A stretch of DNA of 64,000 nucleotides from an uncultured Actinomycetes bacterium (GTDB lineage Bacteria; Actinomycetota; JAICYB01), in assembly GCA_964560135.1 (NCBI GenBank), contig CAZLKN010000001.1, positions 30,061 through 94,060 on the forward strand, read 5' to 3'. A program made the position numbers and the translations under genes. The first letter of the stretch is position 1. Each line of letters opens with the position of its first letter. A model generated the notes under the pieces. It ran no database searches, was not told the DNA's origin, and saw only the letters and a list, made by a program, of their open reading frames with translations. This document shows positions 1,611 to 38,244 of the stretch, piece after piece.

Positions 1611-1729
1611 CCGGAGCGCGCCGGCGATCGCGCGGTTCGACGCCCGCCGGCGGCGGCCCCCGACGTCGGTGAAGGAGACCTGGACGCCGTAGCTGCGGGC
1701 CAGGGACCGGAGGGCGTCGGTGCTCTGGG

Positions 1730-5077: not shown

Positions 5078-5087
5078 GCGCAGCCCC

Positions 5088-9027: not shown

Positions 9028-9095
9028 GGTCCGAGTCTACGCCGGGGCGTCGAGCGCCTTGCCCGCTTCTCGTGTGGGACGGTAGCGTCGTGGAC

Positions 9096-10271: not shown

Positions 10272-10747
10272 CCAACGGTTCACCCGGGGCTCCACGTCGG
10301 CTGCTGCGGAGCCGTTCCGACCGGCTCATCGCGGGGGTCTGCGGGGGTCTCGGCCACTACCTCGGGATCGACCCGGTCTGGGTCCGCGTAGCCACGATCC
10401 TCATCATCCTCCTGCCCGGCATCGGCATCGTCGCCGTGGGCATCGCCTACCTCGTGGGGGTCGTGGTGGTTCCGGAGGAGCAGGCACCCGAACCACTCCC
10501 GCAGGGCGGGACGGCGTCCGCGGCGGCGGCACACCACACGCAGGCCCCTCCGCCACCGTCCCCGTCGCGGCCACCCGATGACGGACGCGACCAGGGCCGG
10601 CTCCTCGTCGGCGGGTTCCTGGTCGCCCTGGGAACGGTGTTGCTGGCCCGGATCTACCTGCCCGAGATCTTCACCGTCGCGGTGATCGGCCCCATCGTGT
10701 TGATCGCGCTGGGGGTGCTGGTCGTCGCGCAGGGGCTCCGGCGATGA
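10265..10747 (+). CDS. PspC-domain membrane protein (phage-shock / envelope-stress family).
   Basis: The PspC domain motif is RLLRSRSDRLIAGVCGGLGHYLGIDPVWVRV, followed by a transmembrane helix and a Pro-rich tail. The GTG start overlaps the stop of the upstream eRF1-like gene. Confidence 0.8.
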   Translation: MVTNGSPGAPRRLLRSRSDRLIAGVCGGLGHYLGIDPVWVRVATILIILLPGIGIVAVGIAYLVGVVVVPEEQAPEPLPQGGTASAAAAHHTQAPPPPSPSRPPDDGRDQGRLLVGGFLVALGTVLLARIYLPEIFTVAVIGPIVLIALGVLVVAQGLRR

Positions 10748-11436
10748 GATCGGGACGGCTGATCGTCGGATCGTTCCTCGTGGTCGCCGGCGTCGCCTGG
10801 CTCATGGATTCGCTGGGGCTCGTCGCACTCTCCGCCGGTATGGTGCTTTCGGTCGGGTTGATCCTCGTCGGGGTGGCGTTGCTCGTCACATCCGCCCGGC
10901 CCGGCGGCCACGGAGGGTTGATCATCCTCGGCGTGATCCTGACCCTGGTGCTCGGTCTGGGCACGACGGTGCGTGACCGGGCTGATGCCGCGCTGTTCCG
11001 CGGTGGGATCGGTGACCGGGTGGAGCGGCCCAGCACCCGCGCGGAGGCGCAACGCACCTTCGAGCTCGGCGCAGGCAACCTCAGACTCGACTTGACGGCT
11101 CTGGGCGCGACCCGCTCGCCGATCCGCGTCCGGGCCCGCGTGGGCACCGGCGAGCTGACGGTTGTCGTGCCCTCGCATGCGGCCGTCCGGATCACCTCGC
11201 ACGTGCAGGTGGGCCGCATCACGGTGTTCGGGCAGGAGCGTGGGTCGGGGCTCGACGTGACCGACACCTTCAGGGGAGGTGACGGCGGTCCCGTGCGGCT
11301 CAACCTCGACCTGCGCGCCGGCGCTGGTCGCATCGTGGTCGACGGCCGGCCGACACCGGACGCTCCGCCGGAGCCCTACAGGCGGGCACCGTCAGAACCC
11401 CGGGTCGGGCCGATCGAGGAGCCCTCCGATGCCTGA
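10744..11436 (+). CDS. LiaF-like / DUF2154-type 'toast-rack' membrane protein (cell-envelope stress module).
   Basis: The protein has two N-terminal transmembrane helices, then a beta-rich C-terminal domain (GAGNLRLDLTALG...VRARVGTGELTVVVPSHAAVRITSHVQVGRITVFG). It overlaps pspC as ATGA. Confidence 0.65.
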   Translation: MRSGRLIVGSFLVVAGVAWLMDSLGLVALSAGMVLSVGLILVGVALLVTSARPGGHGGLIILGVILTLVLGLGTTVRDRADAALFRGGIGDRVERPSTRAEAQRTFELGAGNLRLDLTALGATRSPIRVRARVGTGELTVVVPSHAAVRITSHVQVGRITVFGQERGSGLDVTDTFRGGDGGPVRLNLDLRAGAGRIVVDGRPTPDAPPEPYRRAPSEPRVGPIEEPSDA

Positions 11437-11671
11437 GCACGGCGTAGACGTGACCGCCGCGGTCTCCGGGGCGTTGTTCGTGGTCCTGGGCGGGCTGTTC
11501 CTCCTCGACCAGCTCGACGTGATCGTGGTGGCTCCGAGGCTCGTCTGGCCGCTGCTGCTGATCGGACTCGGAATCGCCGTCCTCGCCGGAAGCCGGCGCT
11601 CCCGCGGCGACGCCCCGGCGGAGGACGGCGACTCCCCAGCCGGGACCGACGACCCGCCGCTCGCCCCGTAG
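11429..11671 (+). CDS. Small two-TM membrane protein (80 aa), third gene of the PspC module.
   Basis: The sequence is MPEHGVDVTAAVSGALFVVLGGLFLLDQ...LLIGLGIAVLAG. It overlaps the upstream gene by 8 nt and is immediately followed by the next ATG. Confidence 0.5.
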   Translation: MPEHGVDVTAAVSGALFVVLGGLFLLDQLDVIVVAPRLVWPLLLIGLGIAVLAGSRRSRGDAPAEDGDSPAGTDDPPLAP

Positions 11672-12718
11672 ATGCTGCGCGTCGGGCTGGCGGGGTGCGG
11701 GTTCATCGGACGCGTGCACGCATGGGCGCTGTGGGCGCTGCGCCGGTCGAGCCTCGTGGACGCCGCCCTGGTGGCGGTGTTCGACCACGACCCCGAGCGC
11801 GCGGATCAGCTCGCGGCTCCACACGAGGCACGGACGGTCTCCAGCTCTGAGGCCCTGTGCGACGCGGTCGATGTCGTGTACGTGTGCACCCCCACGGCAG
11901 AGCACGCCGCGATCGTGGACGTTGCGGTCTCGCGGGGACTGGCGATCTTCTGCGAGAAGCCGTTGGCGACCGACCTCGCGGGGGCCGAACGGATCGCTAC
12001 GGCGCTCCGGCGGGTTCCGCACCAGGTCGGACTCGTGCTCAGGGCCGCTCCCGTCTTCCGGCGCCTGAACGAGGTGCTGGCCTCCGGTGTGTACGGCCGG
12101 GTGATGACGCTGCACCTGCGGGACGACCAGTTCTTCCCGACCCAGGGCCACTACGCCTCGTCGTGGCGGGCACAGGTGGACGTCGCCGGCGGCGGAACGC
12201 TGATCGAGCATTCGATCCACGACCTCGACCTGTTCCGCTGGCTGCTCGGCGATCCCGAGGAGATCTCTTGCCGTACGGCCTCCTTCTTCGGGCATCCGGG
12301 CATCGAGGATCTCGCTGTGGCCACGCTCACCTACCCTGGTGGCGTCATCGCCGGCCTCACCAGCGTCTGGCACCAGGTCCTCACGCGCCCGTCGACCCGG
12401 CGGCTCGAGGTGTTCTCCGAGCAGGCCCTGATCTGGACGGACGACGACTACACGGGACCGCTGCACATCGAAACCTCGGACGGGAGCGAGACGCTGGCGT
12501 GCCCGCCGGAGCCCTGGGTGGACCAGCTTCCCGTTCCCGAAGGTGTCCGCCGGCCACTCGGTCACTACGCGCAGGCCACCAAGGCCTTCCTGGAACGCAT
12601 CCACGGGACGGCGTCCTCGGCGTCGCTCGCGGGGGCCGAGGACGCCCTAGCCGCGCACCGGCTGGTGGCCGAGGCGTACCGGTCCGCGCTGGATGGTGGC
12701 CGGCCGCTGCGCCTGTAG
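11672..12718 (+). CDS. Gfo/Idh/MocA family NAD(P)-dependent oxidoreductase.
   Basis: The N-terminal Rossmann motif is MLRVGLAGCGFIGRVHA, and EKPLA is present. The protein is 348 aa. Confidence 0.8.
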   Translation: MLRVGLAGCGFIGRVHAWALWALRRSSLVDAALVAVFDHDPERADQLAAPHEARTVSSSEALCDAVDVVYVCTPTAEHAAIVDVAVSRGLAIFCEKPLATDLAGAERIATALRRVPHQVGLVLRAAPVFRRLNEVLASGVYGRVMTLHLRDDQFFPTQGHYASSWRAQVDVAGGGTLIEHSIHDLDLFRWLLGDPEEISCRTASFFGHPGIEDLAVATLTYPGGVIAGLTSVWHQVLTRPSTRRLEVFSEQALIWTDDDYTGPLHIETSDGSETLACPPEPWVDQLPVPEGVRRPLGHYAQATKAFLERIHGTASSASLAGAEDALAAHRLVAEAYRSALDGGRPLRL

Positions 12719-15250
12719 CTCCGCGTGTGGGCTGCGCTGCGATATGCCGATCCCCCAGGGGCAGCGGTCGAGCCACTCCATGAACTCTTCGGCGGGAAGC
12801 GGCCGGCAGATGTGGAATCCCTGGGCGAGATCGCAGCTCGTGAGCTCCATCAGACGGTCCAGCGTCTCTCGGGTCTCGACGCCTTCGACGACCGTCCGCA
12901 GCCCGAGGTTGTGACTGAGGTCCACGATCGATCGCACGATGGTGGCGTCGTTCTCGTCGTCGGCCATCCCGGCAACGAACGACCGGTCGATCTTGATCTC
13001 GTGGATGGGCATCCTCCGGAGGTGGGAGAGCGATGAGTATCCCGTACCGAAGTCGTCCACGCTCAGTCTGACGCCGGTCTCACCCAGCCGGTCCAGGAGC
13101 TCGACGGTCTCCCGGCGCCCGTCCATGAGCTCCGTCTCGGTGATCTCGAGTGTCAGGCGGTCGACGGGGAGGTTCGTCCCATCGAGTTGTTCCTGGACCC
13201 AGACGGGGAAGTTCGGATCGGAGAAGCTCGCTGCAGACACGTTCACGGCCATCGACAGATCCAGACCGCTTGCGCGCCAGGCTGCGCACTGCTCGAGCGC
13301 GCGACGGATCACCCATGTCGTCAGCGGATGGATCAGTCCCGATGTGACGGCGAGCGGAAGGAACTCGCCTGGCGCCAGCAGGCCGTGCTGGGGGTGGTTC
13401 CAGCGGACGAGCGCCTCGACCCCCACGACCTGGCCCGACCGGAAGTCGATCTTGGGCTGGTAGTGGAGCGTGAGCTCGTTGCCGTTGATCGCGCGCCTGA
13501 GCTCGGACACCTCGGCCAGGCGTCTCCTGCTGTTCGGATCATCGTCGGCCGACCAGAACGCCCACCGCGTCTGCATGCGCTTCGCTGCGTACATCGCGAC
13601 GTCCGCCCGGTGCACCAGGGTCTCCGGGTCCGCAGCGTGTTCGGGGTACAGCGCGATCCCCATGCTGATCGTGGCCTGTACCTTCCGTCCGTCGATGGAG
13701 AAGGGCTGCTCGAGAACCGCCCGGATCCGGCTTGCTACGCGGATCATCTCCCCGCGGTCACCGGCGCCCGGGAGCAGGATCGCGAACTCGTCGCCGCCCA
13801 GTCTGGCCACCGTGTCCGTCTCCCGCAGCAGCTTCACCAGCCGTGCCCCCAGGTCCCGCAGGAGCTGGTCACCACCGCTGTGGCCGAGGGTGTCGTTGAC
13901 GTCCTTGAACCGGTCGACGTCGAGGATGAAGATGGCTAGGCGGCTGCCGTCACGGCGTGCAAGCGCCAGACCGTGCTCCATGCGTTCGTAGAGCAGCGTC
14001 CGGTTGGCCAGACCGGTCAGCGGGTCGTGTAGCGCTTGGTGGCGGAGCGTCGCCTCGGCCTGCTTGCGGTCGGTCACGTCGTCGAAGGCGAGGCCGACGC
14101 ACCGGTCGGGCAGGGGAAACAGCTTCACGGAGAACCGACGCGCGTTGCCCGCGGCATCGTCGAGCCGGACATCGTCCACGTGGATGCAGCTGTTCGACCT
14201 CACGACACGGGACCCGATGGACGGCAACCCGCGACGGCAGAGGTCCTCGAAGATCTCGTGGACACGGCGCCCGACGACGTCGGCCGGGGCCCTTCCGCTC
14301 AACTCCGACGCCGCCGGGTTGAGTGCGACGAGCCGGAAGCTCTCCTGATCGTCGGGATCGTCCAACTGCCAGACGTGCAGGCCCACCTGCATGTTCTCGA
14401 AGATGTCGGCGTACTGACGGATCCTCTCCTGCGCCTGCTTGCGGGCCGTGACATCGACCATCTCGCCGCGCAGCCAGATCACGGAGCCGTCGGGTGCGAG
14501 ATCCACCTTCATGCTGTCCTCGAGCCACAGAACGGACCCGTCGGCGGCGATCATCCGGTACTCCACGGTCTGGTCGTACCCCTGCTCCATGGCGTCGAGG
14601 AACGCCTGGGCGGTGGGGACCAGGTCGCTGGGATGGATCTGGTCGAGCCAGAACCGGGGGTCTCCGAGCCAGGCCTCGGGAGGATGCCCGAGCAGCGACT
14701 CGATCTGCCGGCTCACGAAGGTGATGTGACGGGTCGCGGGATCAGCTTCCCAGACCACGGCGTCAAGGCCGTCGACGAGGTTTGCGTAGCGCCGCCGGAC
14801 GGAACGCTCGCGTTCGGCGATGGCGCCGATCGTGACGATGACCGTCGGAGCGCAGATCAGATACGCCACGATGCCCGGCAGGGCGCTGTCCTGTCCCTGG
14901 ATGACGGCGGCGAGAGCGAACCCCTGCACGGCAGCGACGGCGGTGGCGGCGACGGTCCGCCGGTCGATCAGGACGGTCATCAGCGCGAGATCGGCGAGGG
15001 ACGCGAGGAGGACCGGCGTCCAGACGGCAGGGAAGAGCACGACCACGCCGATCGCCATCGCTTGGTCGATGAAGGCTGTGACCGCCGGGAGCCGTCCGAG
15101 GCGCCTGGCCCACAGGTGCATCAGGAGGTCGACGGGAAGGATGACGAAGAGGCACACGGCCGCGAGCCAGCCCCGGTTCGGTCCGACCTGCGGGATCAGC
15201 CCCGCCGCCGCTCCGAGCGCGACGATCGAGATGTGGCGGCATCCGAACAC
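12647..15250 (-). CDS. Membrane-anchored PAS-PAS-GGDEF-EAL protein (diguanylate cyclase/phosphodiesterase).
   Basis: The sequence contains GGDEF (ARLGGDEF with an RETD I-site) and an EAL domain (GVEALVRW, DDFGTGYSSLSHL), preceded by PAS repeats and an N-terminal multi-TM region. The 5' end is uncertain. GTG at 15250 was chosen as the first start downstream of the neighbouring gene's stop. The longest ORF extends to 15526. Confidence 0.75.
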   Translation of the reverse strand: MFGCRHISIVALGAAAGLIPQVGPNRGWLAAVCLFVILPVDLLMHLWARRLGRLPAVTAFIDQAMAIGVVVLFPAVWTPVLLASLADLALMTVLIDRRTVAATAVAAVQGFALAAVIQGQDSALPGIVAYLICAPTVIVTIGAIAERERSVRRRYANLVDGLDAVVWEADPATRHITFVSRQIESLLGHPPEAWLGDPRFWLDQIHPSDLVPTAQAFLDAMEQGYDQTVEYRMIAADGSVLWLEDSMKVDLAPDGSVIWLRGEMVDVTARKQAQERIRQYADIFENMQVGLHVWQLDDPDDQESFRLVALNPAASELSGRAPADVVGRRVHEIFEDLCRRGLPSIGSRVVRSNSCIHVDDVRLDDAAGNARRFSVKLFPLPDRCVGLAFDDVTDRKQAEATLRHQALHDPLTGLANRTLLYERMEHGLALARRDGSRLAIFILDVDRFKDVNDTLGHSGGDQLLRDLGARLVKLLRETDTVARLGGDEFAILLPGAGDRGEMIRVASRIRAVLEQPFSIDGRKVQATISMGIALYPEHAADPETLVHRADVAMYAAKRMQTRWAFWSADDDPNSRRRLAEVSELRRAINGNELTLHYQPKIDFRSGQVVGVEALVRWNHPQHGLLAPGEFLPLAVTSGLIHPLTTWVIRRALEQCAAWRASGLDLSMAVNVSAASFSDPNFPVWVQEQLDGTNLPVDRLTLEITETELMDGRRETVELLDRLGETGVRLSVDDFGTGYSSLSHLRRMPIHEIKIDRSFVAGMADDENDATIVRSIVDLSHNLGLRTVVEGVETRETLDRLMELTSCDLAQGFHICRPLPAEEFMEWLDRCPWGIGISQRSPHAELQAQRPATIQRGPVRLGHQPVRG

Positions 15251-15435
15251 GCGTGCCCACAGATGATCGGATCCCGCTTCCCGCGGCGAACCGTTGGCGT
15301 GCAGCGGCGAACGCAGACCCACCCTGACTGTTCTCCTTCCTGCCCCCACCAGGCCGTTCGTCGGTGCACCACGGGTATCGGCACGGGCAGGCCGGACCTT
15401 TAGGGCATCGAGGACATGGCGCTCCGAAGAAGGGT

Positions 15436-17829
15436 TCAGGCCACGGTGTCGCTGTGCGTCAGCAGGCTGTCGACCTCGCTGGCCGGCAGCGGTCGGAACA
15501 GGTGGAAGCCCTGGACCACGTCGCACCCGATGCGGCGCAGGTACTGGAGCTGATCCATGGTCTCGACACCCTCGGCCACCACCTCGATACCGAGGTCCTG
15601 GGAGAGGTTGATGACGGAGCGGACGATCGCCATGTCCTCGGCGCTGTGCGTGAGGCCGGACACGAACGAGCGGTCGATCTTCAGGATGGAGAAGGGGAAG
15701 CGCTTCAGGTAGCTGAGGGACGAGTATCCGAGGCCGAAATCATCGATCGCCAGGCGCACCCCCAGCGCGTGGATCTGCTCCGTCAGCTCGAGCATCGCCA
15801 GGTCGTCCCGCATCACCACGCTCTCCGTGACCTCCAGCACCAGCGGCTGGCGCGGGCCCCCGTCGTTGAGGACGGCGGTCAGGTGGGCCATGAAGTCGTG
15901 TTGGCGCAGTTCCTTGGCCGACAGGTTCACGCAGATCGCCAGCGGCTCGTCGCCTTGTCCGTTCCAGATCTGGACCTGCCGGTAAGCCTGCTCCAGGACC
16001 CATCGACCCAGCGGGACGATCAGGCCTGTCTCCTCGGCCAGCGGGATGAACTCCGCGGGGAGCAGCCGCCCGCGTGCCGGATGTTCCCAGCGAACCAGCG
16101 CCTCGAGCCCTGCCATCCGCCCGGTCCGCAACGAGACCAGGGGCTGATACAGGAGCTCGAGTTCCCCGCCCCGGATGGCGCGTCGTAGTTCGGTCTCCAT
16201 CTCCAGACGCCGCCGGGCTCGCGCGGTCATCTCCGAGCGGTACAGCTCCACCCGGCTCCCACCGAGCTCCTTGGCCCGGTACATGGCCAGATCGGCGTCC
16301 TGGATGAAGTCCCGGTCGCGATCCGAGGCGGGACCGTAGGCGATGCCGATCGACGCCGAGACGAACACGTCCCGGCCGTCGATCGAGAAGCGGTCCTGGA
16401 GCTCCTCGCACAGCCGCATGGCTGCCAGCACCGCGCCCTGTTCGCCGTCGACGCCCTCGACGAGCACGGTGAACTCGTCGCCGCCGAAGCGGGCGATCGT
16501 GTCCGCCGGGCGCAGGCACGCGGTGAGCCGGTCCGCCACCGCTCGCAGGAGCTCGTCCCCGACGTCGTGCCCGAGGCTGTCGTTGACCTTCTTGAAGTGG
16601 TCGAGGTCGAGGAAGAGCACGGCGATAGCGCCCGGGCTCCGGGCTTTGCGCTCCAGGCAGTGGTTGAGGCGGTCGAGGAAAAGGGCGCGGTTCGGAAGCC
16701 CGGTCAGCGCGTCGTGGAAGGCCTGGTGGGTGAGCGTCTCCTCGAAGGCCCGGCGCTCGGTGAACCTGCGGGCCACGGTGAGCGCCGCGCCCGCCTGGAG
16801 GGCGAGCAGCTCGAGACACTCCACCTCGTCGGCCGAGACGATCCGGTCGTTCCGGGTCCCTGCGACCAGAACCGCCACCAGCTCACCCGCGGACCAGATC
16901 GGGGTCGCGATGACCGTCCGGTAGCCGAGCTCGCGGATCGCCGGGATGCCCTTGTGCCATGCCGCATAGTCACCGACCACCACCGTCATCTGCCGTCGGT
17001 AGGCGAGGCCCGCGATCCCCGTGTCGAACGGATGATCGGCGGCATAGCCTTCAGGGAGGCCGCGGGGATGCATCACGCGATACCTGGCGCTGCGCTCGTC
17101 GAACAGACAGATCTCGGTGCCGTCGAAGCCGATCGCCACCGTCGCCTCGGCCACCGAGTCGAGGACCTTGCCCACCTCCGGACTGGTCATGCTGCGGCTC
17201 GCCGCGGCGACGATGCCGAGGAGTTCGGCCCGGCGCTCTGAACCTTCGACGACGACGCCGTAGGCGTCCACCTGCTTGCGGAGGTTACGGGCCAGATAGC
17301 CGCTCGCGAGGGCGACGATCAGGATGATCCCGAGGCGGTAGGACACTGATTCGGGACGGAGGGTGACCGCGTCGTGGACCTGTGAGGCGGCGAACTCACG
17401 GACCGGATACAGGAACGCGATCGCGCCCCAGGTGAGCATCGCTCCGCGCAGGCCACCGCGTAGCGCGCCCTCGAGTGGCGGTATCACCAGAAGCGCCCAG
17501 AGTGCGCCGGTCGGGTCGAAGGCGAAGATCCAGGTGATCGCGAAGATGATGAGGACGTCGGCCACGAGTTCGAGGCTGCCGATCCGCTGGAGGGTCTTCG
17601 GGTCGCGGAACCGCCGCCCGTACAACGAGAGGACGTTGACGGCCGTCAGGGCGGCGGCGACGCCCAGCGCGGTCGCGAGCTTCGGGAAGGGCACCGAGAT
17701 CCCGGCGGGAGGACGGTAGAAGGTGAACTGGACGATGGCGAAGGGAACCGCCAGCCAGCGGACGCGGCGCATCGCGGCATCCGTCGACAGGAGCTCGTCT
17801 CTCAGACGGGTTCCATGTGGCGACCTCAC
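15436..17829 (-). CDS. Membrane-anchored GAF-GGDEF-EAL protein (diguanylate cyclase/phosphodiesterase).
   Basis: The protein has an N-terminal transmembrane region, a GAF-like region, GGDEF (ARFGGDEF with an RPAD I-site) and EAL ([21 protein letters not shown]). An alternative start is the Met at 17772. Confidence 0.8.
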
Positions 17830-17961: not shown

Positions 17962-18366
17962 TCACTCGTCCTCGCCGCGCTCGAACCCGAGCGCGAGCGA
18001 GTTGATGCACCAGCGCTGACCCGTCGGTTGCGGGCCGTCGTCGAAGACGTGCCCGAGGTGCGATCCGCATCTGCGACACAGCACCTCTTTGCGGATCATC
18101 CCGTGGCTGGTGTCCTGCCGGAGCTCCACGGTCTCCTCGGAGGCGGGGGACCAGAAGCTCGGCCAGCCCGACCCCGAATCGAACTTGGCGTCCGAGGCGA
18201 AGAGCTCCGCCCCGCACGCGGCGCAGTGGTAGGTGCCCTGCTCGTGGTTGTGCAGCAGTTCGCCGCTGAACGCGGGTTCGGTGCCGTGACCGCGCAGGAT
18301 CGCGTAGCGGTCGGGCGGGAGGGTCTCCCGCCACTCCTCCTCGCTTCGTTCCACCTCGCGTGTCAT
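17962..18366 (-). CDS. msrB: Peptide-methionine (R)-S-oxide reductase MsrB.
   Basis: The 134-aa protein has the SelR motifs (CAACGAELF, GWPSFW, CRRCGSHLGHVF) and the two CxxC Zn sites. Confidence 0.9.
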   Translation of the reverse strand: MTREVERSEEEWRETLPPDRYAILRGHGTEPAFSGELLHNHEQGTYHCAACGAELFASDAKFDSGSGWPSFWSPASEETVELRQDTSHGMIRKEVLCRRCGSHLGHVFDDGPQPTGQRWCINSLALGFERGEDE

Positions 18367-18474
18367 CGCTCCTCAGCCTACCGGCCGCGCGGCGCCCAGG
18401 CGCCCTCTTGTTCGAAGATGTCCCCACGGGTATCGTTTTCCTCCGGGAGATCGGCCGAAGGGGAAGGATCCGAG

Positions 18475-19491
18475 GTGGCCACAGGCGACATCCACGACGC
18501 CGAAGACGTCGCACGCCACGACGTCGAAGACGTCGCACGCCAGACGCGCACGTATTCGCAGTGGTCCTCCACCAAGGGGCTGCGTACCGACATCCTCCCT
18601 TGGCGCCTCTGGGAGAAGGCCAAGCGGCTCCCATGGGACCCGGCGCAGATCGACTTCTCGCAGGACGCGAAGGACTGGGACACGCTCGACGAGGAACAGC
18701 GCGTCACCGTGGCCGGGCTCGCGCGTGGCTTCATGGTCGGTGAAGAGGGGGTCACGCTCGACATCCTCCCGCTCATCCTGGCCACCGCCGACGAGGGACG
18801 CTGTGAGGAGACGATGTTCCTCACCACCTTCGCCATGGAGGAGGCCACGCACGTCGACTTCTTCCACCGCTGGTTCAAGGCCGTCGACGTCGACCCCGTC
18901 GGGATGGAGCACCTCGCACGGCGGCGGATGGTCGAACGGGGGGTGGAGCCCCCGGACTGGGAGCGCCCGAACGGACTGTTCGAGTTCGGGCTCCCGCGCG
19001 TGATGCGACGTCTGCTCGTGGACCGTTCCCCGGAGGCCTTCCTCGACGCAGGCGTCACGTACAACCAGTTCGTGGAGGGCTGCCTGGCCATCGCCGGGTA
19101 CCGGATGTGGGCGCAGATGTTCTCCTCCTTCGGCGTCTTCCCCGGCCTCCAGGAGGGTCTGCGGTACGTGCAGCGCGATGAACGGCGGCACATCGCCTAC
19201 GGCACCTACCTGTGCCGGCGCATCATCGCCGCCCATCCCGAGACCTTCGAGTTCGGTCGGGACCGTCTGTACCGGCTCCGGGACGGCTACATCGAGAGCG
19301 TCCCCGGGGGCGCCGGCGACGCCCTGAACGGGGACAGCCCGCCGAACCCGTTCGCCCCGTTCATCCAGACCGTCATCAAGCAGGTGGACCGGCGTGTGCA
19401 GGTGCTCGAGCGCGCCAAAGGGCTGACATCCGAGGAGGCAGAACGCGGGGCGGGGGCCGAGGAGGCCGAGGTCGAACTGGAGGCGGTGTAG
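18475..19491 (+). CDS. R2-like ligand-binding oxidase (ferritin-like di-metal carboxylate protein, RNR-R2 superfamily).
   Basis: The ferritin-like metal ligands are EEATHVDFF, EGCLAIAGYRMW and DERRHIAYG. The GTG start follows a GGAAGGA RBS. The longer ORF from 18028 is antisense to msrB. Confidence 0.7.
   Translation: MATGDIHDAEDVARHDVEDVARQTRTYSQWSSTKGLRTDILPWRLWEKAKRLPWDPAQIDFSQDAKDWDTLDEEQRVTVAGLARGFMVGEEGVTLDILPLILATADEGRCEETMFLTTFAMEEATHVDFFHRWFKAVDVDPVGMEHLARRRMVERGVEPPDWERPNGLFEFGLPRVMRRLLVDRSPEAFLDAGVTYNQFVEGCLAIAGYRMWAQMFSSFGVFPGLQEGLRYVQRDERRHIAYGTYLCRRIIAAHPETFEFGRDRLYRLRDGYIESVPGGAGDALNGDSPPNPFAPFIQTVIKQVDRRVQVLERAKGLTSEEAERGAGAEEAEVELEAV
18490..18546. repeat. Imperfect tandem direct repeat (about 25 nt x2) inside the 5' end of the R2lox-like gene.
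   Basis: The sequence cacgacgccgaagacgtcgcacgcca / cgacgtcgaagacgtcgcacgccag encodes DAEDVARH / DVEDVARQ. Confidence 0.6.
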
Positions 19492-19534
19492 CTTTCGTGT
19501 CGCGCCGGACGGCGATCCGGTCCATCATCGAGGG

Positions 19535-20389
19535 ATGACCGATGCGCTGTGTCTGCTCACCGTCCACGCCCATCCCGACGACGAAGCGTCGAAGGGTGCG
19601 GGCACGGTCGCCAGGTACGCCGCCGAGGGCGTGCGCACCGTTCTCGTCTGCTGCACCGGTGGGGAGGCCGGGGACATCCTGAACCCGGCCATGGATCGGC
19701 CCGATGTCCGGGCCTGCCTGCCGCAGATCCGGCGTGAGGAGCTGAAGCACGCCGCGGCGATCATCGGATACTCGAACATCGTGACCCTCGACTACAAGGA
19801 CTCGGGCATGCCGGGGACCCCGCACAACGACGACCCCGAGTGCTTCGCGCAGGCCGACTTCCGGGAGGCGGTCGGACGGCTGGTGACCGCGATCCGGCGT
19901 GAGCGGCCGCAGGTGATCGTGACCTACTCCGACGACCAGCGCGGGTACCCGCATCCTGACCACCTGCGGGTGCACGACATCTCGATGCACGCCTTCGACG
20001 TGGCCGGGGATCCCGATGCCTACACCTGGGCGGGTCCCCCGTGGCAGCCGGCGAAGCTCTACTACATCGTGTGGTCGCGGGCGCGCATGCTCGCTACGCA
20101 CGAGAAGTTCAACGAGCTCGGCCTGGAGAGCCCGTTCGACGAGCGCTGGTTCGACCGGCCAGACCAGGATGGCCGGATCTCCACCCGCGTCGACGTCGGC
20201 GAATGGATGCACGTCCGCAGCGAGGCGCTGCGGGCACACGCCACCCAGATCGACCCCGCGTCACCCTTCTGGTTCGGGCTCCCGCCCGAAGCCGCCCGCG
20301 AGGCCTACCCCTACGACGACTACATCCTTGCCCGAGGGCTCGTGGACGCACCCAACCCGGAGGACGACCTGTTCGCAGGACTCCGCTGA
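19535..20389 (+). CDS. mca: Mycothiol S-conjugate amidase (Mca; LmbE-like Zn hydrolase).
   Basis: The protein aligns end to end with known Mca sequences (HAHPDDE, GGEAGDILNPAMDRPDV, YPHPDH, LRAHATQIDP, EDDLFAGL). Confidence 0.8.
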   Translation: MTDALCLLTVHAHPDDEASKGAGTVARYAAEGVRTVLVCCTGGEAGDILNPAMDRPDVRACLPQIRREELKHAAAIIGYSNIVTLDYKDSGMPGTPHNDDPECFAQADFREAVGRLVTAIRRERPQVIVTYSDDQRGYPHPDHLRVHDISMHAFDVAGDPDAYTWAGPPWQPAKLYYIVWSRARMLATHEKFNELGLESPFDERWFDRPDQDGRISTRVDVGEWMHVRSEALRAHATQIDPASPFWFGLPPEAAREAYPYDDYILARGLVDAPNPEDDLFAGLR

Positions 20390-20474
20390 GGAGCAGCCGC
20401 GTCCGCCCCGCGCGCGGTGACCGGCCGGGTGTTTGAAGGTCGCCCGATCGTGGTACGGAGAGGGGACCGGAAGT

Positions 20475-20549
20475 CGGGGATCGCGGTTCGCCGAAGCGCC
20501 TGCCTCGTAGCACCCCCCCGCGGCGCTCACGATCGGACCGCGATCCCCG
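20475..20549. terminator. Nested GC-rich stem-loop between two convergent 3' ends. It is a candidate bidirectional terminator or structured element.
   Basis: A 13-bp outer stem (20475-20487 pairing with 20537-20549) encloses a 7-bp inner stem (20494-20500 pairing with 20522-20528). It lies between the mca stop and the stop of the minus-strand amidinotransferase gene. Confidence 0.35.
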
Positions 20550-20556
20550 CTCCGTC

Positions 20557-21387
20557 TCAAGGGCCCCCGAGCCGGACGTCGAGGGCCAGGGTGAGGCAGC
20601 GCACCCCGCCCCCGGCTTTCAGGAACTGGTCCACCGGTGACACGACGGTCTCGAAGCCCGCGCGGCGCAGCTCGGCGTCCAGGCGCGCCGTGCATGCCGG
20701 CATCACCACGGTCCGTCCGACCACGACCGAGTTCGCGCAGAAGGCCTCGGCCTCCCCGGCCTCGAGCACGATCGGCTCCGGGACGAGGCTGCGGACGACG
20801 TCGCGGCCATAACGGTCCCAGGCATCGGGGACGACGAGAGCCCGCCGCTCGTCGAGGGGGCAGAAGGTGAGATCGAGGTGGTAGTAACGGGGATCCACCA
20901 GCTCGACGGACAGCACTTCTACGCCGAGCGTGGCCGCCAGGGAGGTGTGGGCGTCGAAGTCCGACCGGATCCGGTAGCCGGCCACCACGCGATCGCCGAA
21001 GGGCAGGGCATCGCCGGCCCCCTCGAAGAACGGACCGCTCGGCAGCTCCTCGATGCGCGAGGCTCGTTCGCGGAACCACTCGGTGAAGTGTTTCTCCTCG
21101 CCGGTACGCTCGGGATGACGGAAGCGGCTGGGCACGAAGATCTCGCCGTCGACCATCCCGGCGTTGGCGGTGAAGACCATGTCCGGCAGGCCGTCGACCG
21201 GATCCACGACCTCGATCTCGGCCCCCGCGCCCCGGAGGGTGTCGACGAGCGCCGTCCACTGGCGCATCGACTCGTCGGGGTCGGCCTGGACCTCCCGGTG
21301 CATCCACGGGTTGATCTCGTACAGCACCCCGAAGTGCCGCGCGGGGCACATCAGGTACCGGCGTCCCCAGGGCAGCGCGTCGGTCAT
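20557..21387 (-). CDS. Amidinotransferase/DDAH/arginine-dihydrolase-fold enzyme (guanidino-group modifying enzyme superfamily).
   Basis: The 276-aa protein ends in the catalytic GGGVRCLTLAL Cys motif. The start was chosen at MTDALPWGRRYLM, which overlaps the upstream gene as ATGA. Confidence 0.65.
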   Translation of the reverse strand: MTDALPWGRRYLMCPARHFGVLYEINPWMHREVQADPDESMRQWTALVDTLRGAGAEIEVVDPVDGLPDMVFTANAGMVDGEIFVPSRFRHPERTGEEKHFTEWFRERASRIEELPSGPFFEGAGDALPFGDRVVAGYRIRSDFDAHTSLAATLGVEVLSVELVDPRYYHLDLTFCPLDERRALVVPDAWDRYGRDVVRSLVPEPIVLEAGEAEAFCANSVVVGRTVVMPACTARLDAELRRAGFETVVSPVDQFLKAGGGVRCLTLALDVRLGGP

Positions 21388-22634
21388 CGTCCGACGCACA
21401 GGTGCTGCGCCAGGCCCTGGCAGAACAGGCCGGCGTCGGTGACGATCCCGAGCACCTGGTGGCTCCCGCGGTCCGCGAGCTTGGTGACCACGGCCTGGTT
21501 GATGTCGACGCAGTAGGTCTCCACCGCGGCGGGCAGGATGTTGCCGGTGGCGATCGCGTGGAGGGTGGAGGCCAGCATCAGTGCGACGCTGACCCCCGGG
21601 ACGAGGGAGCGCATCGCGTCCTGGGCTTCGACGACGTCGGTGAGGACGTCCGGCAGGGGGCCGTCGTCGCGGACGGATCCACCGAGCACGAAGGGCACGC
21701 CGCGGCGCACGCACTCGTACATCACCCCGGAGGTGACGATGCCCTGCTCGACGGCGGCGGCGATCGAGCCGACGCGCCGGATCTCGTTGATGGCGCGCAG
21801 ATGGTTGGCGTGGCCTCCCTCGGTGGGGGTGCCCTCGCGGATCGAGACCCCGAGGGAGGTGCCGAGCAGCGCCGACTCGATGTCATGGACGGCGAAACCG
21901 TTGCCCGCGAACAGCACGTCGATCCAGCCCTCCCGCACCAGTCTGGCGACGTCGGCTCCGGCTCCCGTGTGCACCACCGCCGGACCGCAGACGGCCAGCA
22001 GCTTGCCGCCGTCGCCCTTGGCCCGCTCGATGCGGCGTGCCACCTCCGCCACGATCAGGCCCTTGGGTTTCTCGCTCGACACCTCCGAGGACATGAACTC
22101 GAAGGCGGGCTTGGCCCCGGCGATCTTCCCCGCCTCCGGCCCCCGGGGGCGCTCCAGCGGACGCACCCGTACCCCGGCCGAGCCGACAACCACCAGGTCG
22201 CCGGCGCGGATCCGGTGCATGGGCACCGTCCGGGCGGATCCGAGGTCGGGGGCCACCACCAGCGCGCAGTCCATCTCGGGGTTGCCGACGTCGAGCCAGC
22301 GGGAGTCCACCCGGACCTGTGTGGGCAGGTTGGTCGTGGAGTAGAAGTTCCGGGGAAGCGCACCGTCGCGATCCGCGTCCTCGAGGGTCGCGTCGGGCTC
22401 GTCCACCGGATGGGCGCCGTGGGGATGCAGCTCTTCCAACAGCGCCTTGAGCTCACCGGCGGTGGGGGCCGTGACCTCGATGCGCGCGTACGAGGGATCG
22501 GTGTGGCCCTTGCCGACCTCCATCTCCAGGAGCCTGTAGTCGGCACCCGCGTCCACGATCACGTCGAGGATCTTCGCGAGGATCAGCGAGTCGATGATGT
22601 GCCCGCGGACCTCGACCATCGCGCTCGCGCCCAT
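21384..22634 (-). CDS. LOR/SDH bifunctional-enzyme conserved-domain protein (TIGR00300 family; archaeal-type ornithine cyclodeaminase-like).
   Basis: The N-terminus MVEVRGHIIDSLILAKILDVIVDAGADYRLLEM is typical of TIGR00300. The protein is 416 aa. The longer ORF up to 22868 has no support. Confidence 0.65.
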   Translation of the reverse strand: MGASAMVEVRGHIIDSLILAKILDVIVDAGADYRLLEMEVGKGHTDPSYARIEVTAPTAGELKALLEELHPHGAHPVDEPDATLEDADRDGALPRNFYSTTNLPTQVRVDSRWLDVGNPEMDCALVVAPDLGSARTVPMHRIRAGDLVVVGSAGVRVRPLERPRGPEAGKIAGAKPAFEFMSSEVSSEKPKGLIVAEVARRIERAKGDGGKLLAVCGPAVVHTGAGADVARLVREGWIDVLFAGNGFAVHDIESALLGTSLGVSIREGTPTEGGHANHLRAINEIRRVGSIAAAVEQGIVTSGVMYECVRRGVPFVLGGSVRDDGPLPDVLTDVVEAQDAMRSLVPGVSVALMLASTLHAIATGNILPAAVETYCVDINQAVVTKLADRGSHQVLGIVTDAGLFCQGLAQHLCVGR

Positions 22635-22712
22635 CGGCCCAGTGTGGCAGGTGGCGCGGAAAGGGTGCACGCTCTCAGGGGGACCCCGACCGGGCAGTCG
22701 AAGGGAGGAGCG

Positions 22713-23087
22713 ATGGCGAAGCGGGACCAGCGCGGGGGAGTGCTCCGAGCCCTGTGGCAGAACGTCACCGTCGATCTGGAGCCGACGAGCCGGTTCGGTT
22801 CCGGCAGGGCCGACGAGGCCGATGTGAAGACCACGATCGCGCTGACCGAGGAGCCGGATGAGCGCCATCGGCGCATCTTCGAGCGACTGGAGAAGCGGGA
22901 GCTCGTCACCGTCGACAACGATAGCCGCCTGGTGCGCTTCTACGAGCGGTTCGTCTTGGAGCCCGACACCGACGGGGTGTACACCTTCTCCATCACCGCT
23001 CCCCGGTTCGCCGAACTCGTGGGAGGTGGGGACGGTTCTCCTCCCACAGGCGCGTGGACCCTTCGATGTCGGTCAAAACGAACGTGA
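22713..23087 (+). CDS. Hypothetical small protein (124 aa).
   Basis: The ORF is the C-terminal part of a long shadow ORF, but it has its own GGGAGGAG RBS before the ATG and a non-repetitive composition (MAKRDQRGG...YERFVLEPDTDGVYTFSI). Confidence 0.4.
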   Translation: MAKRDQRGGVLRALWQNVTVDLEPTSRFGSGRADEADVKTTIALTEEPDERHRRIFERLEKRELVTVDNDSRLVRFYERFVLEPDTDGVYTFSITAPRFAELVGGGDGSPPTGAWTLRCRSKRT

Positions 23088-23214
23088 CCGTCCCCGTGGG
23101 CAATGACGGCTTGCGGGATCGTCGTCGCTTGGTCTCGGGCATCAGGGGTCCCCTCCCCCGACGGTACGCCGGGCACATCGGCCGCACAAGGCCGGGCACC
23201 GGGGATAATGGGGT

Positions 23215-24222
23215 GTGTCCGACTCCTCCGAGACGATCGAGGTCGCCGGACGGCGGGTGAGGGTCTCGAACCCGGACAAGGTCTACTTCCCTGCCACCGG
23301 GGCCACGAAGATGGACCTCGTCCGCTACTACCTGGCCGTCGGAGATGGCGCGCTCCGCGGTTGCCGCGACCGGCCGACGATGCTGCACCGGTTCCCCGAC
23401 GGCGTCGAGGGCAAGGAGATCTACCAGAAGCGGGTGCCCCACCCACCGGAGTGGATCGAGACCGTCACGGTGCGGTTCCCGTCCGGACGTGAGGCGCGCT
23501 TCCTCGCCCCCCAGGAGCTCTCCGACGTGATCTGGGCGGTGAACCTCGGGTGCCTGGAGATGAATCCGTGGAACGTGCGTCGCGCGGACGTGGACCACCC
23601 CGACGAACTGCGCGTCGACCTCGACCCGACCCCCGGGGTTCCGTTCGCCGACGTCCGGCTCGTCGCCGCCGAGGTCCGCACGGTGCTCGCGGAGCACGGT
23701 TTCTCCGGCTATCCGAAGACGTCGGGGAAGCGGGGGATCCACGTGTACGTGCGCATCGAGCCGAGGTGGCCGTTCACCGAGGTCCGCCGGGCGGCGCTCG
23801 CGCTGGCCCGCGAGGTTGAGCGCCGGATGCCCGAGGTGGCGACGACGGCGTGGTGGAAGGAGGAGCGCCGCGGCGTGTTCCTCGACTTCAACCAGAACGC
23901 CCGCGACCGGACGATCGCGTCGGCGTACTCGGTGCGGCCCACTCCCGGGGGCCGGGTCTCGTGTCCGTTGGACTGGGACGAGGTCGCCGATGTCGAGCCC
24001 GACGATCTGGTTCTCGCCACCGTCCCGGCCCGGTGCGCGGAGCGCGGGGACCCCCACGCGTCCATCGACGACGCCGCGTTCGGCCTCGAGCCGCTCCTGG
24101 AGCTCGCGGCCCGCGACGAGCATGAGGGACTGGGTGACGCTCCGTGGCCCCCGCACTTCCCGAAGGCTCCGGGAGAGGCGCGACGGGCGCCGCCGTCACG
24201 CCGGACTCAGCGCGAGACCTGA
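23215..24222 (+). CDS. LigD-type polymerase/primase domain protein (Prim-PolC-like; stand-alone NHEJ/BER polymerase).
   Basis: The sequence VSNPDKVYFPATGATKMDLVRYY...HRFPDG...GKRGIHVYVRIEP...FLDFNQNARDRTIASAYSVRP matches the LigD Pol/AEP primase domain. The start is GTG. Confidence 0.8.
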   Translation: MSDSSETIEVAGRRVRVSNPDKVYFPATGATKMDLVRYYLAVGDGALRGCRDRPTMLHRFPDGVEGKEIYQKRVPHPPEWIETVTVRFPSGREARFLAPQELSDVIWAVNLGCLEMNPWNVRRADVDHPDELRVDLDPTPGVPFADVRLVAAEVRTVLAEHGFSGYPKTSGKRGIHVYVRIEPRWPFTEVRRAALALAREVERRMPEVATTAWWKEERRGVFLDFNQNARDRTIASAYSVRPTPGGRVSCPLDWDEVADVEPDDLVLATVPARCAERGDPHASIDDAAFGLEPLLELAARDEHEGLGDAPWPPHFPKAPGEARRAPPSRRTQRET

Positions 24223-25235
24223 TCGAAGGTGCATTCGGCCGGCGACTTGTCCTCGCGCCAGCGCAGGAAGGTGGCGGCGTGGCGGAACCGCGGTCCCTGC
24301 ATGTGGTCGTAGGCGACCTCGCAGACCAGCCGGGGCTCCACGGCGACGTAGGTGGGGTCTTTGCCCGCGGACCAGCGGCTCGCCTCCCCGGGGGCCCGTC
24401 CCCCCTCGAAACCTCCGTCGCGCTCCAGCGGACGGAGCAGCTCCAGCAGCTCCCGGCGCTCGCGCGCCTTGAACGACGAGGTGTGGCCCACGAAGTGCAG
24501 CGCGCCGCCGGGGTCGTGGAGGCCGAGGAGCAGGGAGCCGACGCCCTCGCCGTCCTTGTGGATGCGATACCCGCCGACGACGCAGTCGGCCGTGCGGCGG
24601 TGCTTGATCTTGTGCATCACGCGCTCGCCCGGCGCGTAGGGGAGGTCGCGGTGCTTGGCAATGACGCCGTCGAGCCCGAAACGCTCCAGGTCCCGCAGCC
24701 AGGCCTCCGCCTGCTCCGGATCGGTGGTGCGGTCGGTGAGCCAGACACGGGGGCCGGGGGCCAAGGCAGGCTCCTCCGGGGTGGTGGCTGCCGGGCCCGT
24801 GAGGACCCCGGTCAGGCGATCCCAGCGGCCGGACAACGGCGTGGAGCGGAGGTCCTCGTCGTCGACGGCCACGAGATCGAAGGCAACGAAGGAGGCGGGG
24901 GTTTCCGCCGCCAGCTTCGCGACGCGTGAGGCCGCCGGGTGCAGACGCATCTGGAGCGCGTCGAAGTCCAGGCCCGCGTCGGTGGGCATGATGATCTCAC
25001 CGTCGACGACACAGCGCCGGGACAGCGCATCTGCGAGCGCTTGTTCGACCTCCGGGAAGTAGCGGTTCATCGGACGGTCGTTGCGGCTGCGCAGTTCGAT
25101 CCGCTGCCCGTCACCGAACACCACGGCGCGGAACCCGTCCCACTTGGGTTCGTAGATCAGGCCTTCGCCGCGCGGGATCCCGGAGGTGAGCTTAGCGAGC
25201 ATCGGCTTGAGGGGCGGGACGACCGGTTGGACCAT
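24207..25235 (-). CDS. ATP-dependent DNA ligase (LigC/LigD ligase-domain type).
   Basis: The sequence has the adenylation KxDG motif (YEPKWDGFRAV), DGEII, the GLDGVIAK motif, and a C-terminal OB fold. The start is uncertain: ATG at 25235, or TTG at 25283. Confidence 0.8.
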   Translation of the reverse strand: MVQPVVPPLKPMLAKLTSGIPRGEGLIYEPKWDGFRAVVFGDGQRIELRSRNDRPMNRYFPEVEQALADALSRRCVVDGEIIMPTDAGLDFDALQMRLHPAASRVAKLAAETPASFVAFDLVAVDDEDLRSTPLSGRWDRLTGVLTGPAATTPEEPALAPGPRVWLTDRTTDPEQAEAWLRDLERFGLDGVIAKHRDLPYAPGERVMHKIKHRRTADCVVGGYRIHKDGEGVGSLLLGLHDPGGALHFVGHTSSFKARERRELLELLRPLERDGGFEGGRAPGEASRWSAGKDPTYVAVEPRLVCEVAYDHMQGPRFRHAATFLRWREDKSPAECTFDQVSR

Positions 25236-37272: not shown

Positions 37273-38244
37273 CTACCAGGCGTAGGCTTCGGGGGCCGGG
37301 CCCCCGGGCCCGGGGAAGATCTCGTCGAGCCTGCCGAGCACCGCCTCGCCGAGGGTGATCTGAAGCGCCCGCAGCGAGCCGTCGAGCTGCTCGAGCGTGC
37401 GGGGGCCGATGATCGGCGCCGTCACCGCCTGGCGGGTGAGGAGCCATGCGAGGGCGACGTCCGCGGGGGTCTCGCCGATCTCGGCGCACAGCTTCTCGTA
37501 GGCCTCGATCCGGTCGCGATGCTTTTCGAGCGTCTCCTGGATCCGGTCGGACGCGCGCCGTCCCTCGGCCTGCTTGCCGATCACGCCGCCCAGCAGTCCG
37601 CCGGCCAGCGGACTCCACGGGATCACGCCGAGGCCGTAGCGCTCGCAGGCGGGGAGCACCTCGAGCTCGACGGTGCGGGCGTTGAGGTTGTACAGGCTCT
37701 GCTCGCTCACGAGGCCGAGGAAGTGCCGGGCCTTCGCGGCCTCGCAGGCCTGCGCGATGTGCCAGCCGGCGAAGTTGGACGACCCGGCGTAGATCACCTT
37801 CCCCTGCGCGACGAGGGTCTCGCAGGCCTCCCAGATCTCCTCCCACGATGTGGACCGGTCGACGTGGTGGAACTGGTAGAGGTCGATGTGGTCGGTCTTC
37901 AGACGCTTCAGGCTCTCCTCACAGGCGCGCCGGATGTTGAGCCCCGACAGTCGCGAGTGGTTGGGCCATTCCGCCATGCGTCCGAAGACCTTCGTGGCCA
38001 GGACGGTCTTCTCCCGGCGCCCGCCGCCTTTGGCGAACCAGCCTCCGATGATCTGCTCGGTGACGCCCTCGCCGAGCTTGGCGCCGTAGACATTCGCGGT
38101 GTCGAAGAAGTTGATCCCGTGCTCGTGGGCCCGGTCCATGATCGCGTGTGCGTCTTCTTCGGTGGTCTGGGGGCCGAAGTTCATCGTGCCGAGGCACAGG
38201 CGGCTGACCTTGAGGCCGGAACGGCCGAGGTGGGCGTAGTCCAT
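37273..38244 (-). CDS. Aldo/keto reductase.
   Basis: The sequence LGRSGLKVSRLCLGTMNFG...INFFDTANVYG has the AKR catalytic tetrad context. Confidence 0.85.
   Translation of the reverse strand: MDYAHLGRSGLKVSRLCLGTMNFGPQTTEEDAHAIMDRAHEHGINFFDTANVYGAKLGEGVTEQIIGGWFAKGGGRREKTVLATKVFGRMAEWPNHSRLSGLNIRRACEESLKRLKTDHIDLYQFHHVDRSTSWEEIWEACETLVAQGKVIYAGSSNFAGWHIAQACEAAKARHFLGLVSEQSLYNLNARTVELEVLPACERYGLGVIPWSPLAGGLLGGVIGKQAEGRRASDRIQETLEKHRDRIEAYEKLCAEIGETPADVALAWLLTRQAVTAPIIGPRTLEQLDGSLRALQITLGEAVLGRLDEIFPGPGGPAPEAYAW

Follow-up and report, generated by a model that had tools for sequence, protein, structure and literature searches.

The locus examined here raises the question of what two adjoining genes, ocd and adh, accomplish together on the minus strand of a 64,000-nucleotide stretch of DNA from an uncultured Actinomycetes bacterium (contig CAZLKN010000001.1; the whole stretch is hereafter called the window). 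The preliminary description of this DNA had noticed that their products, a 416-amino-acid (aa) protein of the TIGR00300 family and a 276-aa protein with the guanidino-modifying fold, resemble the two modules that are fused in the cyanobacterial ArgZ/AgrE proteins, and had proposed that they form a split and reordered arginine-to-proline route not described for actinobacteria. Taking the results from family models, active-site alignments, gene neighbourhoods and protein fusions, we consider it probable that ocd and adh constitute a single, translationally coupled operon that converts L-arginine into L-proline in two steps, a predicted arginine dihydrolase (ADH) supplying ornithine to a predicted ornithine cyclodeaminase (OCD).

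Examination of the junction between the genes (GGACGATGACCG) showed that the ATG of adh (21387-21385) overlies the TGA of ocd (21386-21384) in an ATGA overlap, as the preliminary description had read it. An NCBI contig of 233,399 bp carries both products, of 416 and 276 aa, in exactly this form as genes that were called independently, and the gene starts therefore agree with an independent call. From the overlap we infer that ocd and adh are translationally coupled.

The 416-aa protein (open reading frame, ORF, 22634..21384 of the minus strand) scored 516 bits against TIGR00300 (E 6.7e-155, with residues 6-410 aligned to positions 5-402 of a model of 407), above the equivalog cut-off (410.8 bits) curated for this model, which the June 2026 release of NCBIfam names 'ornithine cyclodeaminase, nickel-pincer nucleotide-dependent'; its earlier assignment to the family, and to the OCD type within it, is thereby upheld. 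Pfam analysis recovered the three-domain architecture of TIGR00300 proteins, comprising Saccharop_dh_N, a middle domain and a Rossmann domain (Table 1). Using phmmer, residues 4-412 aligned with residues 285-691 of AgrE (Alr4995, 6lrh_A; 353 bits, E 1.7e-104), and a match of 343 bits was obtained to residues 287-693 of Synechocystis ArgZ (Sll1336). We infer from this homology that the protein converts ornithine to proline and NH3. It could be argued that it performs a different reaction, for instance on lysine or some other diamino acid, which it would cyclodeaminate while ADH acts on the matching guanidino acid (for example, homoarginine), as close homologues are still deposited under the names 'TIGR00300 family protein', 'lysine-ketoglutarate reductase/saccharopine dehydrogenase-like' and 'LKR/SDH-like protein' and the assignment of the Acidimicrobiia clade comes from sequence. 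We regard this as very improbable given a score far above the equivalog cut-off, the full-length matches to the OCD domains of AgrE and ArgZ and the proline-oxidising PutA that adjoins ocd in relatives (see below).

Turning to the partner of OCD, residues 10-269 of ADH matched the dihydrolase domain of Sll1336 (residues 8-271) with 208-213 bits (best E 4.5e-62) and the N-terminal dihydrolase domain of Alr4995 with 204-208 bits, the corresponding values for the dimethylarginine dimethylaminohydrolase (DDAH) of P. aeruginosa (PDB 1h70) being 40-45 bits (E 1e-9 to 1e-10). Identity amounted to 44% with the Sll1336 domain, 38% with the mycobacterial Rv2323c type and 23% with genuine DDAH. The guanidino-modifying fold with a C-terminal cysteine motif that had been proposed for this protein was recovered, the motif LKAGGGVRCLTL containing Cys264. 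In the alignment to ArgZ/AgrE the full triad was present, with Cys264, His170 and Glu122 occupying the positions of ArgZ Cys264, His168 and Glu118 (the latter two lying within YHLD and FEGAGD, respectively), and the ArgZ-specific Asn was found as Asn75. Two structures of the Sll1336 N-terminal domain depart from wild type in one residue each, Ser replacing the Asn of FTANAG in 6juz and the Cys of KCLTL in 6jv1; these residues are Asn71 and Cys264, which align with Asn75 and Cys264 of ADH; here the numbering of ArgZ was corrected for two extra N-terminal residues in 6juy_A, and Cys264 was confirmed against 6jv1.

The Asn75 column separates the members of this superfamily. We aligned 12 sequences, including ArgZ, Acidimicrobiia partners, Mycobacterium (Rv2323c type), Kitasatospora, Halorubrum, a genuine DDAH and an arginine deiminase (ADI)-family protein, and found Cys264, His170, Arg94, Arg141 and Glu97 to be invariant. 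The residue at the Asn75 column was Asn in ArgZ, in all the Acidimicrobiia partners, in the Rv2323c-type Mycobacterium protein and in the Kitasatospora and Halorubrum proteins, and Asp in the Photobacterium DDAH (490 bits on the DDAH model) and the Thermomicrobium ADI-family protein. In an alignment of 145 sequences, approximately 90% of 143 family members presented Asn at this column. Asn71 of ArgZ/AgrE was reportedly found by Lee and Rhee in 2020 to be essential for dihydrolase activity, namely for the second hydrolysis.

The company kept by ADH relatives provides the link to ornithine. Searching 1.84 billion representatives yielded 3,812 relatives of ADH (564 of them at E <=1e-30), and among the best 150 representatives 130 were stand-alone proteins, seven were ArgZ-type ADH-OCD fusions, six had only a small Saccharop_dh_N domain ahead of ADH and four combined ADH with a class-III aminotransferase, placed before it or after it (P0124 of 695 aa, P0122, P0172 and P0224 of 740 aa). 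The ADH part of P0124 is 55% identical to the ADH of the window, and its aminotransferase part reaches 464 bits on the Orn_aminotrans equivalog (cut-off 378.4). In Mycobacterium ulcerans (L083 4335-8526, NZ_CP083743.1) the Rv2323c-type gene ddaH overlaps rocD by 4 nucleotides (nt) and is followed by an amino-acid permease gene, with a divergent Lrp/AsnC regulator upstream of ddaH, and in M. tuberculosis deletion of Rv2323c abolishes the conversion of arginine to proline (PMC4569260). Because the family is repeatedly coupled or fused to two enzymes that consume ornithine, the product of ADH is likely to be ornithine and not the citrulline expected of a DDAH or an ADI, and this coupling is the strongest argument available for such a product. 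The aminotransferase fusions probably also explain the name 'ornithine--oxo-acid transaminase' that the Joint Genome Institute (JGI) gives to some ADH homologues of the stand-alone form. A complete fusion of OCD followed by ADH was not present among the 150 best representatives; P0224, tried as a candidate for such a fusion in the gene order of the window, was rejected, its Pfam domains being aminotransferase and ADH. The proteins of the Saccharop_dh_N type, which account for those six of the best 150, carry this domain once or twice ahead of ADH and lack the Rossmann part (P0107, at L092 989-2098, P0121, P0132, P0139, P0155, P0163 and P0179), with an Lrp/AsnC regulator gene just upstream of the one in L092. 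In these proteins Saccharop_dh_N may act as a docking or regulatory module, or they may be deletion derivatives of ocd-adh pairs.

To what extent the pair is maintained in evolution was examined by scanning one genome per GTDB species with OCD, which yielded 80 loci at 63-73% identity. All but two of these were titled Acidimicrobiia or unclassified Actinomycetota metagenome-assembled genomes (MAGs), the exceptions being one Burkholderiales-binned MAG and one 'uncultured bacterium'; the window accordingly belongs most likely to the actinobacterial class Acidimicrobiia. According to tblastn, ADH lies directly downstream of OCD, on the same strand and with a gap of no more than 150 nt, in 73 of the 80 species representatives (gap below 100 nt in 70 and of 101-150 nt in 3 more), and the co-conservation on which the preliminary description depended is thus widespread. 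Two further loci have ADH within 1 kb and one has no room downstream; the same pair was also reached, via ADH homologues, on three further metagenomic or MAG contigs. To score the junctions, each OCD ORF was followed as far as its stop codon and the candidate ADH start closest to the alignment was taken; in 51 of the 74 scorable loci the OCD stop and the ADH start overlapped, a 4-nt overlap being the commonest junction (32/74). The flanking genes vary; of those in the window, a ligase, a P450 and a siroheme synthase domain alone recur, in 2-4 loci. What is maintained is the two-gene unit. The pair is real and more than a product of chance, and it is probably functional. In some relatives OCD persists while the ADH gene is degraded or lost: L074 retains a 57-residue remnant of ADH (11206-11391), and L040 a partial match (11636-12061). 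In L049 the gene next after OCD, in the place of ADH, encodes an FMN-dependent dehydrogenase.

Has this pair then arisen by the splitting of an ArgZ-type gene, as the wording 'split, reordered ArgZ/AgrE' implied? We inferred a neighbour-joining distance tree of 145 ADH domains without support values, in which only the broad pattern is to be trusted. In this tree the ADH of the window groups with its Acidimicrobiia counterparts, the next clade out comprises the ADH-aminotransferase fusions, and the ArgZ-type fusions, including Sll1336, as well as the Rv2323c type fall in other clades. The part of the claim that refers to separate genes in the opposite order stands. Fission of an ArgZ-type gene is rejected, as ADH is not placed among the fused proteins and belongs to a clade of its own, sister to the fusions with ornithine aminotransferase. 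Judging from the tree, the association with OCD appears to have arisen separately, by formation of an operon in Acidimicrobiia and by gene fusion in cyanobacteria.

Placing these results into a reaction scheme, ADH would hydrolyse arginine twice to ornithine, CO2 and 2 NH3. In this step Cys264 would be the nucleophile and His170 and Glu122 the acid-base pair, while Arg94 and Arg141 would hold the alpha-carboxylate of the substrate and Asn75, in the place of the Asp of DDAH and ADI enzymes, would enable the second hydrolysis as in ArgZ/AgrE. OCD would next cyclise ornithine to proline with release of the third NH3, a hydride being shuttled internally on a tightly bound dinucleotide, either NAD(H) or the nickel-pincer adenine dinucleotide, and translational coupling would hold both proteins at matched levels. 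The overall outcome predicted is that of the AgrE pathway as summarised by Flores, in which arginine gives proline, CO2 and 3 NH3 (PMC8262935). The neighbourhoods of the relatives are informative as to the fate of proline. In three loci (L031 6727-9975, L060 1770-4994 and L074 6596-9955) ocd is immediately preceded, on its own strand, by a putA gene (Pro_dh and Aldedh domains, approximately 1,100 aa), and glutamate dehydrogenase is encoded nearby in 21; both observations support proline as the product of OCD. Where PutA is present, proline would be oxidised on to glutamate, and the net role of the route in these loci would consequently be the use of arginine as a source of nitrogen and carbon. 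A gene for an AI-2E-family membrane protein lies upstream of OCD, often coupled to it, and has homologues in 54 of 82 related loci (for example, L090 2478-3584). In one contig from JGI the pair is followed by a coupled aldehyde dehydrogenase gene.

Several observations weigh against the arginine-to-proline operon. The window contains neither an arginine transporter nor PutA, ornithine aminotransferase, glutamate dehydrogenase or the AI-2E gene, and no dedicated regulator for the pair. Four relatives (L049, L070, L077 and L081) present no ADH within 10 kb of OCD and, because they keep OCD nonetheless, this enzyme can also act on ornithine from other sources. None of larB, larC and larE was detected by Pfam and NCBIfam among the 50 ORFs of the window, and a scan of 1.34 Mb of related loci with LarB, LarC and LarE regular expressions gave nothing credible, although this test is a weak one. 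The function of the Acidimicrobiia clade is, moreover, read from homology, active site, operon structure and fusions. Finally, ADH scores 250.6 bits on Arg_dihydro (NF052232), below the cut-off of 450, and about equally on a model that NCBI names dimethylargininase (DiMArgaseDdahMtb, NF045659, the Rv2323c type).

This last point opens the way to a reading of the 276-aa protein as a dimethylargininase, or as another single-step guanidino or ureido hydrolase, in which case OCD would be fed by ornithine from elsewhere. The best single NCBIfam score of ADH is indeed that on DiMArgaseDdahMtb (254.8 bits), its only Pfam match is DDAH_eukar, and JGI calls most of the homologues N-dimethylarginine dimethylaminohydrolase. 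Yet 254.8 bits does not reach the cut-off of 300 of that model, and on the P. aeruginosa-type DDAH model (NF045658) ADH attains 46.9 bits against a cut-off of 450. We calibrated both models: the Sll1336 N-terminal domain gave 529 bits on Arg_dihydro and 241 on DiMArgaseDdahMtb, M. ulcerans ddaH gave 195 and 475, respectively, and a Kitasatospora protein gave 387 on DiMArgaseDdahMtb, whereas the Acidimicrobiia ADH partners gave 213-240 on both models (221-237 on Arg_dihydro). These scores place ADH in a third clade of one family, outside both curated subfamilies. On the model of the bifunctional protein (bifunc_ArgZ, NF052231; cut-off 1025) ADH reached 251.6 and OCD 421.6 bits, neither attaining the threshold. 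Asn75 stands where genuine DDAH has Asp. As had been anticipated, ADH does not go with canonical DDAH (47 bits, 23% identity), and it scores 213 bits against the dihydrolase domain of ArgZ. Citrulline, the product of a DDAH, would furthermore be of no use to OCD or to ornithine aminotransferase, the very enzymes with which this family is found coupled or fused, and the Rv2323c clade is genetically tied to the formation of ornithine and proline. We therefore hold the single-step hydrolase to be improbable.

A rather unlikely alternative, although less so than the previous one, retains the chemistry and changes its purpose: the pair would serve mainly to supply proline, for biosynthesis or as a compatible solute, and not as a catabolic shunt. 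The pair stands alone in the window, without PutA, transporter or regulator, the OCD step is effectively irreversible and gives proline directly, and in M. tuberculosis proline dominated the labelled products of arginine (PMC4569260). Such a role sits poorly with the operons of putA, ocd and adh in three relatives and the glutamate dehydrogenase neighbours in 21, and the loss of three NH3 per arginine would make this a costly synthesis of proline. The catabolic conversion of arginine through ornithine and proline is accordingly the reading that we retain.

The name of the family model predicts a nickel cofactor for the OCD of the window. AgrE has reportedly been modelled with NAD(H). An ornithine cyclodeaminase has been described as using the nickel-pincer adenine dinucleotide non-covalently, the enzyme having been traced via adjacency to larE (Desguin 2025, Int J Biol Macromol 330:147799, as cited in a 2026 paper, PMC13524815). 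Most cyanobacteria carry larB, larC and larE and lack LarA, from which a 2024 paper implies a hitherto unrecognised user of the cofactor (PMC11796402), and the OCD domain of ArgZ/AgrE fits as that user. Were OCD to bind this cofactor, larB, larC and larE must exist in the genome; no lar genes were found among the recurrent neighbours in the 82 related loci nor beside the Clostridia OCD variant L089. Extending the prediction, OCD would be a nickel enzyme, the arginine and proline metabolism of Acidimicrobiia would depend on nickel and on lar genes located elsewhere in the genome, and ADH may in addition dock onto OCD via Saccharop_dh_N, which would recreate the AgrE channel non-covalently. We put this forward tentatively, as a proposal that is somewhat more doubtful than probable; the candidacy of Saccharop_dh_N as docking module, suggested by the Saccharop_dh_N-ADH fusions, is speculation. 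Aldo-keto reductase genes occur in the window (37273-38244, minus strand) and near the pair in L001 (4673-5671), and nickel-pincer-dependent members of that superfamily have been reported (PMC13524815); their proximity to the pair is probably coincidental.

Comparison with known systems helps to delimit what is particular to this locus. With AgrE and ArgZ (Alr4995 and Sll1336) the pair shares full-length homology of both modules, the same catalytic Cys, His, Glu and Asn and the same predicted overall reaction. The cyanobacterial proteins are single polypeptides of approximately 700 aa with the dihydrolase first, whereas here two ORFs occur with OCD first, and because a covalent link is missing any intramolecular channel is absent. 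The window ADH also lies in a different clade, below the Arg_dihydro cut-off, and in another phylum. The cluster of Rv2323c (ddaH) and rocD is, like ours, actinobacterial, and its stand-alone ADH-family enzyme has the same active-site residues, including the Asn, and is translationally coupled to a consumer of ornithine. It differs in that the partner is ornithine aminotransferase and not a TIGR00300 OCD, in having a divergent Lrp/AsnC regulator and an amino-acid permease that our pair lacks, and in that the M. ulcerans protein passes DiMArgaseDdahMtb (475 bits) and the window ADH does not (255). Rv2323c was found in 2015 to be needed for the conversion of arginine to ornithine and to proline in M. 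tuberculosis (PMC4569260). The claim of a route not described for actinobacteria consequently fails for the conversion itself and holds for its genetic arrangement, as we found no paper on an operon linked to OCD.

The stand-alone nickel-pincer TIGR00300 cyclodeaminases of Desguin (2025), as far as the citing account describes them, belong to the same family by equivalog and share the three-domain architecture with OCD; they are reported there as adjacent to larE, whereas here and in the 82 loci the partner is a dihydrolase and adjacent lar genes are absent. In Coxiella burnetii an ArgZ-N homologue (CBU_0279) and an OCD (CBU_1727) are likewise separate enzymes, proposed to convert arginine to proline with release of ammonia (preprint, PMC13252051), but the two genes are unlinked and the pathway there is also inferred. 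Canonical DDAH (1h70) has the same fold superfamily, the Cys-His-acid triad and the two invariant Arg residues. It differs from ADH in presenting Asp for Asn75, in a single hydrolysis to citrulline and in its low identity and scores (23%, 40-47 bits).

The coordinates of the pair, of its domains and active-site codons and of the flanking elements are collected in Table 1.

Table 1. The ocd-adh locus: genes, junction, flanking elements, OCD domains and ADH active-site codons (positions in the window)
Feature	Position	Strand	Remarks
ocd, TIGR00300-type ornithine cyclodeaminase (predicted), 416 aa + stop	22634..21384	minus	ORF and family assignment
adh, stand-alone ArgZ-N-domain-like guanidino-modifying enzyme, predicted arginine dihydrolase, 276 aa + stop	21387..20557	minus	ORF and homology
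ATGA stop/start overlap of ocd and adh	21384..21387	minus	4 nt; read from sequence
ocd upstream region, presumed promoter and 5' untranslated region	22635..22712	minus	78 nt; position only
GC-rich compound hairpin, possible terminator, no U tract	20468..20554	minus	13-bp outer stem in both minimum-free-energy and centroid structures
Saccharop_dh_N (PF04455) of OCD	residues 6-102; 22329-22619	minus	Pfam
ArgZ-like_C_1st (PF21571) of OCD	residues 104-195; 22050-22325	minus	Pfam
ArgZ-like_C_2nd Rossmann domain (PF21570) of OCD	residues 197-406; 21417-22046	minus	Pfam
Asn75 codon of adh	21163-21165	minus	aligned to ArgZ Asn71, motif FTANAG
Arg94 codon of adh	21106-21108	minus	alignment
Glu122 codon of adh	21022-21024	minus	aligned to ArgZ Glu118
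Arg141 codon of adh	20965-20967	minus	alignment
His170 codon of adh	20878-20880	minus	aligned to ArgZ His168
Asp172 codon of adh	20872-20874	minus	beside His170
Cys264 codon of adh	20596-20598	minus	aligned to ArgZ Cys264

Signals around the pair are few. The region upstream of ocd also serves a divergent 124-aa ORF (22713-23087, plus strand), and in it a consensus scan found no match to a sigma-70-type promoter; the only terminator-like site in that scan was at chance level and on the opposite strand. The fold of the ocd 5' region is unremarkable (z = -0.4), and an Rfam scan of 19000-24500 (E up to 1) gave a chance match to a snoRNA and no riboswitch or leader. The hairpin listed in Table 1, situated between convergent genes, begins 3 nt past the stop codon of adh; since the 176-nt stretch as a whole has no significant z-score, it counts as weak evidence. 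The G+C content is approximately 70% throughout the window. The divergent ORF is moderately coding-like in its G+C by codon position (0.66/0.50/0.81), and neither a Pfam match nor a homologue in the 82 related loci was found for it; it may be an orphan gene or no gene at all.

The remaining genes of the window include those for mycothiol amidase, an F420 enzyme, LigD/LigC and GlgE, which fit Actinomycetota. The GlgE alpha-glucan pathway occupies 3-7064 (minus) with MalQ, a fused TreS-maltokinase-like protein (1189 aa) and GlgE. At 9072-11671 (plus) a bacterial eRF1-like (baeRF) protein is encoded ahead of membrane proteins of the PspC-domain and LiaF-like types. The stretch 12647-17829 (minus) codes for two large GGDEF-EAL proteins side by side, of which one has PAS domains and the other a GAF domain; as their longest ORFs overlap by approximately 90 nt, the start of the first lies probably further downstream. 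The ORF at 18250-19491 (plus) encodes 413 aa and weakly matches the small chain of ribonucleotide reductase (R2-like); because it overlaps the MsrB gene of the opposite strand (17962-18366, minus) by approximately 117 nt, its true start is probably later. A DUF222 and HNH endonuclease gene at 38374-39651 (plus), where the GC skew is unusually high (0.15 at 38-40 kb), may be a remnant of a mobile element. At 41109-45505 lies a tyrosine/homogentisate catabolism cluster, consisting of an Lrp/AsnC regulator and, divergent from it, genes resembling those of 4-hydroxyphenylpyruvate dioxygenase and homogentisate dioxygenase and a gene of the fumarylacetoacetase family, with a Uma2 endonuclease gene inserted on the opposite strand. 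Lastly, the 1132-aa product of 59247-62645 (minus) is homologous to tricorn protease (574 bits, PDB 1k32).

What emerges is a new arrangement of known enzymes, the chemistry itself being already known. Our literature search found no description of a conserved ocd-adh operon of Acidimicrobiia or of its separate dihydrolase clade, and automated pipelines already label some ADH homologues 'arginine dihydrolase'. The locus provides a testable function for genes that are at present named 'TIGR00300 family protein', 'LKR/SDH-like protein', 'dimethylarginine dimethylaminohydrolase family protein', 'arginine deiminase-related protein' or 'Amidinotransferase'. Because of the rocD context and of the Asn at the ArgZ Asn71 column, the name 'dimethylargininase' given by PGAP, the annotation pipeline of NCBI for prokaryotic genomes, fits M. 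ulcerans ddaH poorly, and for the Rv2323c clade this name is probably misleading. The arginine dihydrolase route would not be confined to cyanobacteria, the unfused enzyme being the common form, and the dihydrolase has been tied several times independently to a user of ornithine: to OCD in Acidimicrobiia, to ornithine aminotransferase in mycobacteria and in fusions, and to a fused OCD in cyanobacteria. If the nickel-pincer cofactor proves true for OCD, arginine catabolism would be linked to nickel in an abundant environmental lineage, the Acidimicrobiia, which are widespread in soil and water and for the most part uncultured.

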